From NCBI GenBank assembly GCA_951406725.2, contig OX597827.1, positions 59,954,001 to 60,018,000 on the forward strand: a stretch of DNA of 64,000 nt, in the 5' to 3' direction. The notes under the pieces were generated by a model that did not search any database, was not told where the DNA came from, and saw only the letters and a program-made list of their open reading frames with translations. The stretch comes from Octopus vulgaris. Lineage: Eukaryota. How positions within the stretch are numbered: the stretch's first letter is position 1; every line of letters starts with the position of its first letter. Shown here piece by piece: positions 660 to 61,391 of the stretch. A program made the translations under genes and the position numbers.

Positions 660-1149
660 TGTATATGTATGTTTGTGTATGTATGTGCGTGTGTGTGTGT
701 AGATATATAGATATATATAGACACGCATATATACACATATCATATATGCATGTATTTAATATGCAGAAGTGTATACAGTCACACTTATTTTTATGTGGAC
801 GTAGATGCAATATACGTACATGCATGCGTTCATGCTCCAGCACATAACCCCCCGACTCACACACACACACACAGATTTATACATGTCATATATATCCCAT
901 GTAGTGCCATGAATCAACAACACAAAAAAAAACGACACAGAAAAAAATTATCTAAAACAATACAGGCCTCCAAAAATGATTTTTATAAAATAACATTCGT
1001 TCTAATGAGATTATTTTGCTGAAGGGTTTCAGAAAATAGGTTCGTTAAGAGAATCAGTTGCTCTTCTGACGTCACAAGACAAGCCGCCGTCTTGGACATT
1101 GTGTAAAAATATAACATTCTAATGGTAATATCATATACAGCATTTATTT

Positions 1150-1830
1150 TGGCAGACTGGCGTTGCTGTTGATGTTGATGTTAGTGATGGCAGCGGCGAC
1201 GGCGGTGGTGGTGTTGGTGGTGGTGGTGAAGTTGTTGATGATGGCCGGGGTGTGGTAATGTTGGTGGAGGTGAGCTTGTTAACAACGATGCTGTTGGTGG
1301 TGGTGATGGTGGTGAGGTTGTTGTTGTCAGTGGCACTGGTAGTGGTGGTGGTGGTGGTAGTGATGGTGCAACTGCTGCTTATTATTATTATGATGATGAT
1401 AGTGTGGTAATGGTACTGGAGGTGGTAGTGATGGTTATTGTAGTAGTGTTAGTGATGGCTATGGTCGTGGTAATGGTGGTGGTAATGGTGGTGGTGGTGG
1501 TTGTAGTGGTGTTGGTGGTAGTGGTAGCGGTGGTGGTGGTGGTGGTGGTGCTGGTGGTGCTGGTGCTTGTGCCGGTGCTGGTGGTGGTGGTGATGATGGT
1601 GCCGCTGCTTGTGGTGATGGTGGTGGTGCCGGTGGTGCCGGTGGTGCCCGTGGTGCCCGTGGTGGTGTTGGTGGTGGTGGTGCTGCCGGTGCTGGTGGTG
1701 ATGGTGGTGATGTTTGTGGTGGTGGTGGTGCTGCTGCTGATCTTGGTGGTAGTGGTGATCTTGATGCCACCACAGTAGTTCTTGTCATTTTTTGCTGCCG
1801 TGGTGGTCACCAACACCGTCGTTGCTGTGA
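1150..1830. repeat. Degenerate (GGT)n low-complexity tract
   Basis: Direct inspection; source of the poly-V/T/P pseudo-ORFs. Confidence 0.9.
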
Positions 1831-2003
1831 TCGTTACTGTTTAACTCTCGGTCGACCCAATATTTGAACCGACCCATGATCAATGACTTTCCAACCACGA
1901 CTATCTAGATTAGTTTCTTTCTCATGTAATATGGTAGGTTATGCCATTAGAGAGACTTGGCCTCTATTTATGGTACGTTAACAAACTTAGTAGTAGTAGT
2001 GGT

Positions 2004-2110
<107 letters not shown>

Positions 2111-2332
2111 CTGCAGCAGCAGCAGCAATAGTACGATCAAGGAAATAGATTCAGACACCGTAACTTAAATGATGCAAAAATTTCTCGATTGAATGAAATG
2201 CTTCTCTTTGGGGGGGGGTCGTTTTGTTTTACTTTTTCTTTTTTGGTAGAGAAATAAAATAAAACCCTAACGGTGAGTGTCAGTAGCTAATTTCAAGAAA
2301 TTAACAATTAGCTTCACAAATATATTATACAT

Positions 2333-2504
2333 AGGCATAGGAGTGGCTGTGTGGTAAGTAGCTTGCTTACGAACCACATGGTTCCGGGTTCAGTCCCACA
2401 GCGTGACAACTTGAGCAAGTGTCTTCTACTATAGCCTCGGGCCGACCAAAGCCTTGTAAGTGGATTTGGTAGACGGAAACTGAAAGAAGCCCGTCGTATA
2501 TATG

Positions 2505-2541
<37 letters not shown>

Positions 2542-2602
2542 ATGTTTGTGTGTCTGTGTTTGTCCTCCCCAACATCGCTTGACAACCGATGCTAGTGTGT
2601 TT
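2333..2602 (+). mobile_element. SINE S1, 5' two-thirds
   Basis: Head with A-box-like tggctgtgtggtaa and B-box-like ggttcagtcc, plus internal (TA)/(TG) tract. Confidence 0.85.
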
Positions 2603-2946
2603 CAGTCATTTGACTGCGGCCCTGATGGAGCACCGCCTTTAGTCGAGCACATCGACCCCAGGACTTATTCTTTGTAAGCCTAGTACTTATCCTATCGGTC
2701 TCTTTTGCCGAAAAGCTAATTTACGGAGACGTAAACACACCAGCATCGGTTGTCAAGCGATGTTGGGGGGACAAACACAGACACACAAACACACACACAC
2801 ATATATACACACATATATGTATATACGACGGGCTTCTTTCAGTTTCCGTCTACCAAATCCACTCACAAGGTGTCAAGCAGTGAGACTGAACCAGGAACCA
2901 TGTGGTTGGTAGGCAAGCTACTTAACACACATCCACTCCTGCGCCT
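2598..2946 (-). mobile_element. SINE S1, near full length with internal deletion, fused tail-to-tail to the previous copy
   Basis: Reverse complement of S1 from tgtttcagtcatttgactgcgg to ccactcctgcgcc. Confidence 0.85.
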
Positions 2947-2952
2947 ATGTCA

Positions 2953-3192
2953 TTATGTTTTCAAAGTGGAGACAAGCACCTCCATCCATCAATAAATTGA
3001 TGAGACAGCACAAGACAACATTTTTTGTATGTATTGTCCTATGCTGTCCCATCTATGTATTGATGTTTATGGTCGTGATAAGCCATGCTACTCCATGCTA
3101 CTCCAGACTGATGATGAGCCATGAGTCTGAAACTAGTCTCTGGGTGCTGTCTTTGCTGGGTGGATGTGCTTATCTCCACTTTGAAAACATAA
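2953..3192. mobile_element. 240-bp element bounded by 32-bp inverted repeats and enclosing a hammerhead
   Basis: ttatgttttcaaagtggagacaagcacctcca (2953-2984) matches the reverse complement of 3161-3192 with 2 mismatches. Confidence 0.65.
3103..3143 (+). ncRNA. Minimal type I hammerhead with degenerate stem II
   Basis: CCAGA-CUGAUGA-ugagccaugagucu-GAAAC-UA-GUC-UCUGG: stem I 5 bp, ACUAGU palindrome, GUC site. Confidence 0.7.
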
Positions 3193-3793
3193 GAACGCAG
3201 GAAATGTGTCAAGTCCAACAGAAAACGGTGTTTTCTAGGGATAAATAACAGTAGCATTCTTCCCTTTTATGGGGCTGTCAATTTAAGTTCACAACATACT
3301 ATCACTAAACGAATATTGTTCAATTTTATTTACAGTCTTCTTTTCAAGGCAGGAACTTCTACCTGGTCACTCTGTATGCTTGAAATAGTTGTCAAACAAA
3401 CTACGCGCTATTGCCTTACCAAATAATTAGAGAATATTGTCCTAGAAATACAAATACGACCTCATTAGACGTGGTAGACAAGGATGAGACACCTTTGACT
3501 ATAAGCTTGTTCAACCTGGGCTGTCCTGGAGACGAAGCATCAGAAAAAAATTTTCTGTAGCAGACAATTTGCCAAAGTCGTTAGGGCGTAGAGCAAAATA
3601 TTTTGCGATTTTATTCTGGCTCACCCACTGCGCTGTGAGTTCAAATTCTGCCATGGTCATCTTTAACTTTCATCGTTTCTGGGTCGACAAAATACAGTAG
3701 TGGCCCAGTGCGGGGGATTAGCAGAATTGCTAGCGCATTGAACGGTATTTGTTTCAGCTTTTTCTGGTTTGAGTTTTTGGCTGGAAGAGTCAA

Positions 3794-4032
3794 TATATTG
3801 CTCTGTTTCCTTACAATACTGGGCCCTTGTATTCCTTTAACGGAGGTCATACTCATGCAAGCATTCGGACCATTTTGAGGATAACATCTTCGTCCCCCAC
3901 CCAATCTCCAAAATATATTGCACTGTTTCCTTACAATACTGGGTCCTTGAGTTCCTTTAACGGAGGTCATACTCTTGCAAGCATTCGGACCATTTTGAGG
4001 ATAACTTCTCCGTCCCCCACCAAATCTCGAAA
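3794..4032. repeat. Tandem duplication of a 120-bp unit (2 copies)
   Basis: ctgtttccttacaatactggg at 3803 and 3923; copies differ by a few substitutions. Confidence 0.9.
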
Positions 4033-4511
4033 ACCTTGTACTAGTAAAATTACTAGCATTGTGCCAAAAATTACGAATGGATTTCCTATCAAACTCAAAC
4101 CTCAATCTGACTATGAACATTCATACAGCTGAAGATCAAATTCCCGAAATCTGTGTTGGGCAGTGTTGGACTCAAATGCGAAATCACAGTAACCACGACA
4201 CGAATCTCTCAAGTAGACAGCCATATCGACTAATGTTTGAATTATGCAAATAGGATACTTGCCTTATCTCCTTATGTGATTCCATGAGTCCATGATATAA
4301 GACGAAATGTCCAAGCTATTGTATAGAATTACTTGACTTGGAAGCATGTATTTTTTTAGCTTTTTATAATTTTAGTTTCCTTACATTATATATATATATA
4401 CATTATATATATATATATAATATCCTGTTTCATTTAATTTTCGTTTGTTTTCCTTGTAATTCTTTTTATTTTATTTTGTTTGGTGGCGGTGGGATTTAGT
4501 CGGAGTTATTT

Positions 4512-4617
<106 letters not shown>

Positions 4618-13711: not shown

Positions 13712-14325
13712 ATATATGGGTACAGGACATGAAAAAGAAGTTGAACACAATGAGAAACGAAAATATAAAAACAAAAACATAGAAACGAACTTTTTTTCGG
13801 ACAACGAAAAAACAGTGAAACGAGACATACAACATAAAGAATATCCCCCTTCTTCAGTTGTCCCTGTTTCAACTACACGTTTCGAAGGTAAGGACAAGAC
13901 ACGACTTCGTTGAAACAGTCCTTCCTGCAAAGCAAGTTAAATAAAATTTGGGGTTTTTTGCGGAGGGTGAAAGTGGTAACAAGAGCAGGAGAGTGAGAAC
14001 AAAACAGTAAAAACAATAAAAAAAGTAAAAACAGTAAAAGACAGAACAATGAGAACAAAACAGTACAAACAAACGATGAGGGCTGTTAAGCCAAGACGAT
14101 GGAAAAATTATTCTGAACGCTTAGGAAGACGAGCTTATGAAGAGACAGGATAAGCCCGTTTAGTCTTTGTGAAGGTAGTAGTCAGAAAGATAGATTCCCT
14201 CTTGTCACGTGTCAGCAACGAGAGAGTCGAGGAGGAGGAGGAGGAGTAAGAGAGAGTGAACGGTGAAGGAGAGAGGAGAAGAATAGAGAAGGGTGGGAGA
14301 GAAAACCAGAAAGGATTAAGAACCT
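13712..14325 (-). mobile_element. ORF-less retrozyme/Penelope-like element A with permuted hammerhead
   Basis: Flanked by (TA)n. CT-rich 5' region, GTCACGTG at 14204-14211, ribozyme at 13851-13924, U-rich 3' region ending tgtcctgtaccc (similar ends at 32420 and 43750). Boundaries approximate. Confidence 0.55.
13851..13924 (-). ncRNA. Non-circularly permuted (pseudoknotted) hammerhead, family A
   Basis: GAAGG-a-CUGUUUCAAC-gaagu-CGUGU-C-UUGUCC-uua-CCUUC-GAA-ACGUG-ua-GUUGAAACAG-GGACAA-CUGAAGA. Stem II 5 bp, extra helix 10 bp, stem III 5 bp (2 GU), stem I 6 bp, GUC site. Confidence 0.8.
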
Positions 14326-30902: not shown

Positions 30903-30945
30903 ACTTTAATCGATTTTCGAACCATACTGGGTTCTCATCAGAGGC
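30903..30945 (-). ncRNA. Minimal type I hammerhead
   Basis: GCCU-CUGAUGA-GAACC(caguau)GGUUC-GAAAA-UCGA-UUA-AAGU. Confidence 0.7.
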
Positions 30946-34198: not shown

Positions 34199-34785
34199 AG
34201 GTGGCGAGCTGACAGAATTTTTTCGCAGGCCGGAAGAAATGCTGAGCAGAATTTCGTCCGTCTTTACGTTCTGAGTTCAATTTCCGCCGAGGTCGACTTT
34301 GCCTTTCATCCTTTCGGGGTCGATAAATTAAGTACCAGTTACGCACTGGGGTCGATGTAATCGACTTAATCCCTTTGTCTGTCCTTGTTTGTCTCCCCTA
34401 TGTTTAGTCTCTTGTGAGCAGTAAAGAAATAAGAATTTCGTCTGTCTTTACGTTCTGAGTTCAAATGCTGTCGAGGTCGACTTTGCCTTTCATCCTTCGG
34501 GGTCGATAAATTAAGTACCAGTTACGCACTGGGGTCGATGTAATCGACTTAATCCCTTTGTCTGTCCTTGTTTGTCTCCCCTATGTTTAGCCTCTTGTGA
34601 GCAGTAAAGAAATAAGAATTTCGTCTGTCTTTACGTTCTAAGTTCAAATGCTGTCGAGGCCCATTTTACTTTTCATCGTTTTGGGGTCGATAAAATAATT
34701 ACCAGTTGAGCACTGGGTTCGATGTAGTCCACTATCCCCTACACCTAATTTTCAGGTCTTGTACATATAGTGGAAATGATTATTG
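34199..34785 (+). mobile_element. SINE S2 array with two internal units of about 184 bp ending in a Tx1-like tail
   Basis: Junction agaatttcgtc at 34248, 34432 and 34615. Confidence 0.85.
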
Positions 34786-38139: not shown

Positions 38140-38717
38140 GGCAGAAACGTTAGCACGTCGGACGAAATACTTCGCGGTATTTTTAGTCTGTCTTTATGTT
38201 CTGAGTTCAAATTGCGCCGAGGTCGACTTTGCCTTTCATCCTTTCGGGGTCTATAAATCAAATACCAGTTACGCACTGGGGCCGATGTAATCGACTTAAT
38301 ACCTATGTCTGTCCTTGTTTGTCCCCTCTGCGTTTAGCCCCTTGTGGGCAATAAAGAAATAGGTATTTAGTCTGTCTTTATGTTCTGAGTTCAAATTGCG
38401 CCGAGGTCGACTTTGCCTTTCATCCTTTCGGGGTCGATAAATTAGGTACCAGTTTACGCACTGGGGTCGATATAATCGACTTAATCCGTTTGTCTCTCCT
38501 TGTTTGTCCTCTCTGTGTTTAGCCCCTTGTGGGTAGTAAAGAAATAGGTATTTCGTCGGTCCTTACGTTCAGAGTTCAAATTCCGCCGGGCTCGACTTTA
38601 CCCTTCATCCTTTCGGGATTCAATAAATTAAGCACCAGTTGCGTAGTGCGATAGATCTAATCAACTGGCCCCCACCCCTAAAAATTTCGGGCCTTGTAAC
38701 TAGAGTAGAAAGCAATA
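38140..38717 (+). mobile_element. SINE S2 array with two internal units of about 185 bp ending in a Tx1-like tail
   Basis: Junction ggtattt at 38176, 38362 and 38547. Confidence 0.85.
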
Positions 38718-43586: not shown

Positions 43587-43632
43587 GACACCTGAAGAAG
43601 GCTGGAGGATATTTCAGCCGAAACGTTGTGCT
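43587..43632 (+). ncRNA. Minimal type I hammerhead with a stem I mismatch
   Basis: GACAC-CUGAAGA-A-GGCUGGA(ggauau)UUCAGCC-GAAAC-GUU-GUGcU; AACGUU palindrome. Confidence 0.65.
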
Positions 43633-51799: not shown

Positions 51800-51846
<47 letters not shown>

Positions 51847-51934
51847 GGTATGTAGAAAAATACAACATGGACAAGAACGTATAACTCTTAGAAGACGACA
51901 CAATAAACACGGACAGGACATTCGAAACCCTCAG

Positions 51935-52007
51935 TCTTCAGTCAAGAACCGGATCATCGTAGTAATTTCGGCTGATTAATCTTGAGATTACTAGATCACG
52001 GCCAGCC
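51935..52007 (-). ncRNA. Non-circularly permuted hammerhead, family C copy 1
   Basis: GGCUGG-CCG(u)GAUC-UAGUAAU-C-UCAAGA-uuaa-UCAGCC-GAA-AUUACUA-cgau-GAUCCGG-u-UCUUGA-CUGAAGA; AUC site. Confidence 0.8.
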
Positions 52008-52777
52008 CTCCAAGAAAAACCAAGCAACGAGCATTAGAAAAACTAAGCTGGAAGCGTAGATTTCCTGGAAGAAGGATCGAATGCATACGAACACCAGGAC
52101 AGCAAAAGGGACAGATATAAAAAAACAAAAAACAATAATGGAATACAGAAACATGAAATACAGAAGCATTAACGGTGAAAACAACGGTGTCTTACGACTG
52201 ATAACAAGCAAACAAATTTTTTCTCTGGCGCAATGGAAAAAGCCTTTATAGTGGCGGACGAAAACAGCGATGTTAACAGAACGAGGGTCAGAGGCTGAAA
52301 GGCAGATTTCGGCCAACAGTCACGTGACAGAGAAGAGGGAAAAGAAAAGAAAGAGAAGCAAAGGAAGAGAGAGAGAGAGGAGGGACAAACGCAACAAAGA
52401 GAGAGAAGAGAGAGAAAGAAGGAATCAGAGAGGAGAAGGGATGGGTGTCGAAGAATGACCTGTGAGTGCAGAGCGAGACAAAGAAATAGGAGGGTAGTGG
52501 AAGACTAGACCAAAGAATCAGAGGAAAGAGAAGAGAAAAAGAGGATGAGTGGAGAGAAAAGAGAGAGAGGGGGACAGATCAAGTAAAAATGAGAGAGAGA
52601 GAGAGACAAACAGAGAGTCGTACCAATTATTAAGAATATGTGCTCACATAAATGTTAAGGGGGTACGGGGCGCCTGGAATATATGTTAAGGTATGTAGAA
52701 AAATACAACATGGACAAGAACGTATAACTCTTAGAAGACGACACAATAAACACGGACAGGACATTCGAAACCCTCAG

Positions 52778-52850
52778 TCTTCAGTCAAGAACCGGATCAT
52801 CGTAGTAATTTCGGCTGATTAATCTTGAGATTACTAGATCACGGCCAGCC
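52778..52850 (-). ncRNA. Non-circularly permuted hammerhead, family C copy 2
   Basis: Same sequence as 51935-52007, offset by 843. Confidence 0.8.
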
Positions 52851-53525
52851 CTCCAAGAAAAACCAAGCAACGAGCATTAGAAAAACTAAGCTGGAAGCGT
52901 AGATTTCCTGGAAGAAGGATCGAATGCATACGAACACCAGGACAGCAAAAGGGACAGATATAAAAAAACAAAAAACAATAATGGAATACAGAAACATGAA
53001 ATACAGAAGCATTAACGGTGAAAACAACGGTGTCTTACGACTGATAACAAGCAAACAAATTTTTTCTCTGGCGCAATGGAAAAAGCCTTTATAGTGGCGG
53101 ACGAAAACAGCGATGTTAACAGAACGAGGGTCAGAGGCTGAAAGGCAGATTTCGGCCAACAGTCACGTGACAGAGAAGAGGGAAAAGAAAAGAAAGAGAA
53201 GCAAAGGAAGAGAGAGAGAGAGGAGGGACAAACGCAACAAAGAGAGAGAAGAGAGAGAAAGAAGGAATCAGAGAGGAGAAGGGATGGGTGTCGAAGAATG
53301 ACCTGTGAGTGCAGAGCGAGACAAAGAAATAGGAGGGTAGTGGAAGACTAGACCAAAGAATCAGAGGAAAGAGAAGAGAAAAAGAGGATGAGTGGAGAGA
53401 AAAGAGAGAGAGGGGGACAGATCAAGTAAAAATGAGAGAGAGAGAGAGACATACGCACATTGTGTGAATGATTGATGTTTATATAGGTATGCATATGGTA
53501 TGCATGTGTTTATATAGTTATGCAA

Positions 53526-57314: not shown

Positions 57315-57385
<71 letters not shown>

Positions 57386-57460
57386 AAGATAGGACAAGAA
57401 TGCAAAACATTCAGACAGACGATACAAATAAATCAAGGACGGGTCATTTGGAGTTTTCTT

Positions 57461-57533
57461 TCCTCAGTCGAGTTCCAGATTATCCTTGCAATTTCGGCTG
57501 GTTATACTCGAGATTGCTCCAATCTGGCCAGTC
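57461..57533 (-). ncRNA. Non-circularly permuted hammerhead, family E
   Basis: GaCUGG-CCAGAUU-gga-GCAAU-C-UCGAGU-auaa-CCAGCC-GAA-AUUGC-aaggau-AAUCUGG-a-ACUCGA-CUGAGGA; lies in a (TA)n-flanked fragment at about 57380-57552. Confidence 0.8.
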
Positions 57534-57564
57534 CCAAGGAAACAAAAAAACTATATATATATAC

Positions 57565-61310: not shown

Positions 61311-61391
61311 TCATCAGTTATCAACCAGATGATATTACTCAGTTTCGCACCTTCAATGATAAGACTGAGAACCTCCCATGCCGGCGGTGTC
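61311..61391 (-). ncRNA. Non-circularly permuted hammerhead, family F
   Basis: G(a)CACC-g-CCGG(c)AUG-ggagguu-CUCAGU-C-UUAUCA-uugaa-GGUGC-GAA-ACUGAG-uaauau-CAUCUGG-u-UGAUAA-CUGAUGA; GUC site; element at about 61165-61795. Confidence 0.75.

Follow-up and report, generated by a model that had tools for sequence, protein, structure and literature searches.

A hammerhead-type fold with scrambled strands near the 3′ end of Penelope-like repeats in Octopus vulgaris

The locus and the layout of the fold

The window analysed here is a stretch of 64,000 nucleotides of the Octopus vulgaris genome (contig OX597827.1, positions 59,954,001 to 60,018,000). At 57461-57533, on its minus strand, lies a decayed copy of a hammerhead-type fold with scrambled strands, of a kind found near the 3′ end of Penelope-like repeats (Table 1). 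The hammerhead core is present and its blocks follow each other in the non-circular order S-G-C. Read 5′ to 3′, from 57533 to 57461, the copy starts with the 5′ strand of stem II, the 5′ strand of an extra helix, P, and a GGA, followed by the cut-site block and a 4-nt linker. Downstream of the linker come the 3′ strand of stem II, GAAA and stem III, then a 6-nt loop. The 3′ part comprises the 3′ strand of helix P, the stem I strand and CUGAGGA. The predicted cut site is between 57512 and 57511. An A at 57532 gives an A-C mismatch in the second pair of stem II.

Both copies of the related family C in the window have the same spacing as this copy, and a descriptor scan of the window returned two further motifs of this layout, at 13857 and 61317. 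No match to a relevant family was obtained with Rfam at the gathering score in the 64-kb window, nor any hammerhead family at E ≤ 1 in three loci.

Table 1. Coordinates of the fold, its parts and related features in the window
Feature	Position	Strand	Remarks
Family E copy	57384..57551	-	5′-truncated, ~170 nt, flanked by (TA)n tracts; 5′ strand of leader helix missing
Stem II, 5′ strand	57528..57533	-	G10.1 = 57533; family E consensus GGCUGG
Extra helix P, 5′ strand	57521..57527	-	
GGA side of kink-turn-like internal loop	57518..57520	-	P/stem III junction; assigned from the general kink-turn consensus
Block S	57506..57517	-	stem III strand, U16.1 (57513), C17 (57512), stem I strand
Block G	57488..57501	-	stem II 3′ strand CCAGCC, GAAA (57495-57492), stem III strand
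3-nt bulge and GA of kink-turn-like loop, then helix P 3′ strand	57475..57487	-	
Block C, first half	57461..57473	-	stem I strand and CUGAGGA; stem II partner absent downstream
Family C array	51843..53449	-	tandem array of 843-nt units without ORF, 3′ end fixed, (TA)n insertion site
Family C ribozyme fold, copy 1	52778..52850	-	
Family C ribozyme fold, copy 2	51935..52007	-	
Family X, matching layout	13851..13924	-	stem II GAAGG/CCUUC; weak adjacent partner also possible
Family Y, matching layout	61311..61390	-	consensus stem II GCACC/GGUGC; decayed in the window copy

Other repeats of the window were noted in passing. At 43587-43632 (plus strand) there is an ordinary minimal hammerhead of type I, of the Penelope kind and with an additional A ahead of stem II; its stem II, GGCUG/CAGCC, is that of families C, E and F, and it has relatives in loci L139, L149 and L165. 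Two related CUGAUGA cores at 30941 and 31245 (minus strand), 304 nt apart and each with a 4-bp stem II then GAAA, are probably type I minimal hammerheads in short tandem. Tandem arrays with a unit of 183-185 nt occupy 34248-34733 and 38182-38640; this unit resembles a common SINE of the genome.

Paired changes between families C and E

The fold was originally predicted from the letters alone, on the grounds that families C and E differ by paired changes in stem I, stem III and the extra helix. All strands quoted in that prediction are present on the minus strand where it had placed them. Two pairs are changed on both sides in stem I (UCGAGU/ACUCGA in E, UCAAGA/UCUUGA in C), one in stem III (GCAAU/AUUGC in E, GUAAU/AUUAC in C) and two in the extra helix (CCAGAUU/AAUCUGG in E, CCG.GAUC/GAUCCGG in C), the second of these showing only once a one-base gap is introduced for a bulged U of family C, which plain MAFFT fails to do. 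At N7, family E has G and family C has A, and the remainder of CUGANGA, GAAA and UH is invariant, as had also been claimed. The compensatory pattern was kept in consensus sequences derived from the best 30 copies of each family.

The two families thus differ by five base pairs altered on both sides, with none broken, for a total of 20 differences at 73 ungapped positions. When 11 changes were randomly placed on the 48 paired positions, all 24 pairs were kept in 52 of 200,000 trials, and five double changes were obtained in none of the 200,000. Taken alone, the contrast between C and E amounts to five events in two lineages, and no double change was found among 30 copies within family E. An alignment of the C/E clan (7 rows) had 93.6% of its cells paired, compared to 14-42% in slid controls; both-sided changes affected 10 of its 20 pairs, a value reached by none of 500 shuffles. 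We conclude that the covariation is genuine and that it favours a hammerhead fold permuted in a non-circular way. The part of the original claim that concerned a permuted fold is upheld, as a non-circular hammerhead, whereas its list of stems was incomplete: stem II, the element that decides the type of the fold, was missing from it. Covariation of this type shows selection on structure; catalysis remains a prediction.

The 5′ strand of stem II lies upstream of the cut site

We prepared consensuses for eight families (C, E, F, G, X, H, Y and N), each from the 15-30 top copies; families beyond those first seen came from 800 kb of random genome sequence and from locus flanks. CUGANGA, GAAA and the UH cut site are present in all eight consensuses, and this core is intact in 23 of 30 family E copies. 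Across the consensuses every cell of stem I (48 of 48) and of stem III (40 of 40) is paired, and the sequences involved differ widely. For stem II, an exact 5-nt complement of the strand preceding GAAA occurs once within 45 nt upstream in each of the eight families, at 19-26 nt upstream of U16.1; an exact 5-nt partner within 45 nt after A9 was found in none. The upstream stem is Watson-Crick in 40 of 40 cells, with six distinct sequences (GGCUG, GGGCA, GAAGG, GAGCA, GCACC and GACAC), and G10.1-C11.1, next to G12, is present in 8/8. The chance of such an upstream 5-nt match in the observed window of eight offsets is 0.002-0.014 per family. As the upstream strand was picked by its complementarity, the strand-swap p-value for stem II is inflated. 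These data suggest to us that the upstream strand completes stem II, which would restore the usual three-helix core from four separate strands.

Position of the strand before the cut, and not after CUGANGA, means that the fold is not of plain type SGC, and a plain type-SGC ribozyme was ruled out, E and C having no adjacent stem II partner. A variant of this reading is that the ribozyme is an ordinary type-SGC hammerhead in which a weak strand after CUGANGA forms stem II, the upstream strand acting as an off-switch by sequestering the 3′ strand of stem II until conditions change. At 0-2 nt after CUGANGA, pairing reaches 0-2 of 5 pairs in E, C, F and G and at best 4 of 5, with wobbles or mismatches, in X, H, Y and N. 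The four-pair downstream partners of X and H (adjacent, with two wobbles) and those of C and F (5 nt after A9) are what such a switch would use. Against it, no such downstream partner exists in E, G and N, or near A9 in Y, and these four families keep the core and compensated stems regardless. In addition, the upstream duplex is the more stable one in all families (-4.6 to -10.1 kcal/mol, against 0 to -4.2 kcal/mol downstream), and in type-CSG Naiad elements (see below) the upstream position is that of the true stem II strand. We consider the off-switch unlikely and retain the upstream strand as the stem II partner.

The mismatch of the window copy is not private to it: an uncompensated A-C at the second stem II pair is shared by 11 of the 30 nearest family E copies, the window copy included, a proportion biased by the use of this very copy as query. 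That the mismatch is common to so many copies implies that a lineage with weakened stem II was amplified.

Helix P, the kink-turn-like loop and the leader hairpin

Covariation across families extends to all four helices. In the young family F, helix P contains two mismatches. Kink-turns have a consensus made of a 3-nt bulge, then tandem G-A / A-G, between two helices. This sequence pattern is matched by the internal loop between P and stem III in four families (E, F, G and N); in C the match is off by one position, and X, H and Y do not show it. A leader hairpin that ends 0-1 nt before G10.1 is predicted in seven of the eight families, with differing closing pairs and with at most 8 of 100 shuffles scoring as high; folding gave no support for it in family N (44/100 shuffles as high). 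The same shuffle test applied to a helix directly after A9 was clear only in X (1/100), weak in E, F, G and H (7-18/100) and negative in C, Y and N. Single-strand folding of the fold gave z = -0.8 to -2.2 with a method that cannot model pseudoknots.

Comparison with known hammerheads

Eckert et al. (2023, PMC10085705) described the hammerhead as three blocks (C, G and S) taken to be uninterruptible, which allows six orders, and validated SGC and CSG ribozymes. Their examples come from metatranscriptomes apart from one bacterial GCS candidate, and only two CSG sequences were known. Their search patterns required stem II to be continuous with CUGAUGA(U)G and allowed a spacing of no more than 15 nt from stem III to stem I, so that a split form could not have been reported there. 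No paper describing a split-core form was found in the literature covered by our search, outside which most subscription journals lie.

The type-SGC ribozymes (HRIMA-1 and the SGC variants) resemble the present fold in S-G-C order, full core and four helices, one of which joins stems I and II; stem III and the cut-site sequence of SGC-3 are identical to those of family E. In SGC-3, a tested ribozyme that we rebuilt by eye from the oligonucleotides, the stem II strand and then the P strand follow CUGAUGA, whereas in the present fold both strands lie ahead of block S, their order unchanged, and block C is split. Relative to SGC-3, this reordering of P and stem II strands corresponds to an SGC ring whose ends have been joined and which has been reopened between A9 and G10.1. 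Type CSG, in the same source, is another opening of this ring of strands, with the stem II strand directly before P; its block C is whole, in contrast to the split block C found here. As the upstream stem II strand is present in 8/8 families, the fold can be described as an SGC/CSG ring opened between A9 and G10.1, a link that Eckert et al. took to be unbreakable. Known hammerheads can carry an additional unpaired base at this site (PMC4209133); that the site would also tolerate a full break is our inference. The type-SGC examples come from assembled metatranscriptomes and the present fold from chromosomal repeats of an animal. Types I, II and III have a circular strand order, unlike the S-G-C order found here without any Rfam match.

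Non-LTR retrozymes and Penelope minimal hammerheads (PMC4209133; bioRxiv 10.64898/2026.07.22.740005) are likewise ORF-less tandem repeats with one hammerhead per unit. Like the repeats studied here, they derive from Penelope-like elements, and their hammerhead is of type I, circularly permuted and with a weak stem III. The present repeats have instead a non-circular form, a full stem III and units of 740-860 nt.

The carrier repeats

Family C forms arrays of up to four units, flanked by (TA)n on each side. Their 5′ ends vary, and they share a single fixed 3′ end ~145 nt beyond the cut; the ends of family E also lie in (TA)n. The (TA)n target, tandem units, fixed 3′ end and 5′ truncation of family C are Naiad-like features. 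No ORF with an N-terminal GIY-YIG and a C-terminal reverse transcriptase was found in the C or E units, and an ORF search of the family loci gave, among the matches listed, no frame tied to either. More generally, no ORF was tied to any of C, E, F, G, X, H and Y. We view the carriers as ORF-less, (TA)n-targeting Penelope-like repeats, and a Naiad origin of C and E is suggested by the shared layout.

Identity was 100% over 141 nt in all 40 matches listed for family C and 100% in 18 of the 40 listed for family F; such identical copies imply recent spread. First-look candidates numbered 979-4588 per family, figures which are not copy numbers. A profile search of the 800 kb of random genome sequence gave eleven matches, three of them intact by the descriptor (none in the reversed control); by rough extrapolation from these 800 kb, the data suggest at least ten thousand copies in the genome.

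Tandem units raise the possibility that cleavage takes place only as a dimer, the stem II strand being supplied by the next unit or by a second molecule. Arrays of up to four units would allow it, and minimal Penelope hammerheads have been proposed to act as dimers (PMC4209133). However, stem III (5-7 bp) is no palindrome and the strands all fall within a span of 75 nt, so that a monomer can fold. A strictly dimeric ribozyme is in our opinion highly improbable, and we keep to the monomeric fold.

A young element was also examined as carrier. Loci L388-L395 (e.g. L389:3705-5963, minus strand) hold near-identical copies of a young Penelope-like element whose open frame of 753 aa encodes a reverse transcriptase then a C-terminal GIY-YIG. 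The element is a candidate driver for the young ORF-less families; it has no sequence in common with the C unit. By eye, its 3′ region appears to contain a type I minimal hammerhead with a U3-A8 core variant. It was rejected as carrier: a split hammerhead is found 543 nt after the frame in only one of eight copies (L389), and this one is a separate insertion, since the other seven copies have no motif and it has its own (TA)n tract.

Some loci deserve mention for their arrangement. L129:6423-6506, L187, L194 and L013 are mixtures of E-type and C-type ribozyme halves; L129 combines the upstream P strand of E with the downstream P strand of C and has a 6-nt deletion, which suggests recombination between families. 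Side-by-side inverted pairs of one family, as in Penelope-like insertions, are seen at L013, L094, L100 and L113.

Viral (90 loci) and metagenome (at least 120 loci) scans for the C/E-type pattern gave no locus judged to be a ribozyme among the matches listed. Minimal stem I and III filters were passed by 21 of the 210 matches listed, 19 of the 21 being one recurring stretch that resembles coding sequence.

Relation to Naiad elements

Craig et al. (2021, PMC8557442) described (TA)n targeting, tandem units and 5′ truncation for Naiads. They reported no canonical hammerhead, only ‘HHR_core’ and eight ‘HHR_half_core’ cases, the latter with core halves far apart on either side. We read excerpts of the published Naiad consensus sequences by eye. 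The split form was recognized in nine of them, including Naiad_Obim, Naiad_Ovul and three Acropora entries; the four others are, judging by file order, one hydrozoan, two box jelly or acanthocephalan and one crustacean. In six nematode-section entries, three named Nippostrongylus, the ribozyme appears to be of type CSG, with block C whole, helix P present and the stem II strand directly before the P strand. The split or CSG form is thus carried by at least 15 of 54 entries, from excerpts in which 60 of 62, 30 of 43, 15 of 23 and 15 of 25 core matches were listed. One excerpt (supplement part 25) with S-G-C order and no good stem II was left out of this count.

Layout is alike in these Naiad entries and in families C and E, which differ from them by the absence of an ORF. 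Family N, which has reverse-transcriptase remnants 5′ of its ribozyme motif, corresponds in sequence to the 3′ end of Naiad_Obim and Naiad_Ovul. The octopus Naiad motif had 273 exact matches in the genome (0 in the reversed control), and it is located 3′ of reverse-transcriptase remnants, on the same strand, at 12 of 30 loci with reverse-transcriptase hits.

Two side observations concern Naiads. Near position 493 of L048 (plus strand) we noticed a further S-G-C family, like one published Naiad entry, with GGGGCC as stem II 3′ strand and a decayed upstream part. The six apparent CSG hammerheads of nematode Naiads compare to two CSG sequences reported before.

5′ ends of insertions relative to the predicted cut

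Family C was searched with only the part 3′ of the core, giving 40 exact matches on one contig, equivalent to 25 separate insertions. Ten single short copies start at unit positions 1, 3, 6, 8, 13, 13, 15, 17, 29 and 41, and one array begins at position 25. Positions 1-41 account for ten of the 25 5′ ends and the 41 nt preceding the cut for none (p = 0.002); the nearest starts upstream of it are 51 and 152 nt away, in arrays. This distribution fits templates that would begin at the predicted cut. Only 2 of the 10 short insertions begin within 3 nt of the cut, the others starting inside the fold, and stalling of the reverse transcriptase there could explain most of the short ends. The 33 copies, from all families, that turned up by chance start at -2 to +45 in 8 cases, at -45 to -3 in 5 (the window E copy included) and further 5′ in 20: the insertion boundary near the predicted cut is less sharp in older families than in C.

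At least one intact motif is run through by 15 of the 25 family C insertions. Unit-length contigs from four runs fit a circle or a tandem array equally, and ends and strand are not visible in them.

Could the fold be real and no longer catalytic, its structure serving as a signal to the reverse transcriptase or to stabilize the RNA? The stem II mismatch of 11/30 family E copies, the intact motifs traversed in 15/25 family C insertions and the 5′ ends inside the fold, which fit stalling, all agree with this. Nevertheless, CUGANGA, GAAA, UH and G10.1-C11.1 are fixed while N7, H17 and the stems vary, as expected if active, and the 5′ ends of family C are limited by the predicted cut and not by the 5′ boundary of the fold. 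A purely structural role strikes us as doubtful at best, and we favour a catalytic fold whose core is opened at the A9/G10.1 link and which would likely cleave itself after C17.

A model and its implications

In the mechanism that we propose, the split core would be held together by helix P, putatively kinked in four families, helped by the leader hairpin, whose end would be flush against G10.1. Cleavage of tandem or read-through transcripts would release unit-length RNA, either linear or re-closed to a circle. A Penelope-like reverse transcriptase would then copy the released RNA into (TA)n, starting ~145 nt 3′ of the cut. Cleavage would be only partial, given the many insertions that extend across one or more ribozymes.

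We hold it probable that a predicted split-core form of the hammerhead, outside the six described orders, is carried by Naiad-type Penelope-like elements and by ORF-less repeats. With somewhat less assurance, we lean towards a wider reading in which this would be a seventh natural hammerhead arrangement, active with its core nicked between A9 and G10.1, and the standard ribozyme of Naiads from cnidarians to cephalopods, nematodes having the unsplit CSG form. If so, the same ring would have been opened at different places within one retroelement lineage.

A split core would break a stated rule of hammerheads, that CUGANGA is inseparable from its stem II strand. With it, non-circular ribozymes would pass from environmental RNA to the chromosomes of an animal, where they would number thousands, and the apparent lack of a hammerhead in Naiads would be explained. 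CSG, SGC and split forms would then make up a natural series for asking how RNA permutations arise.
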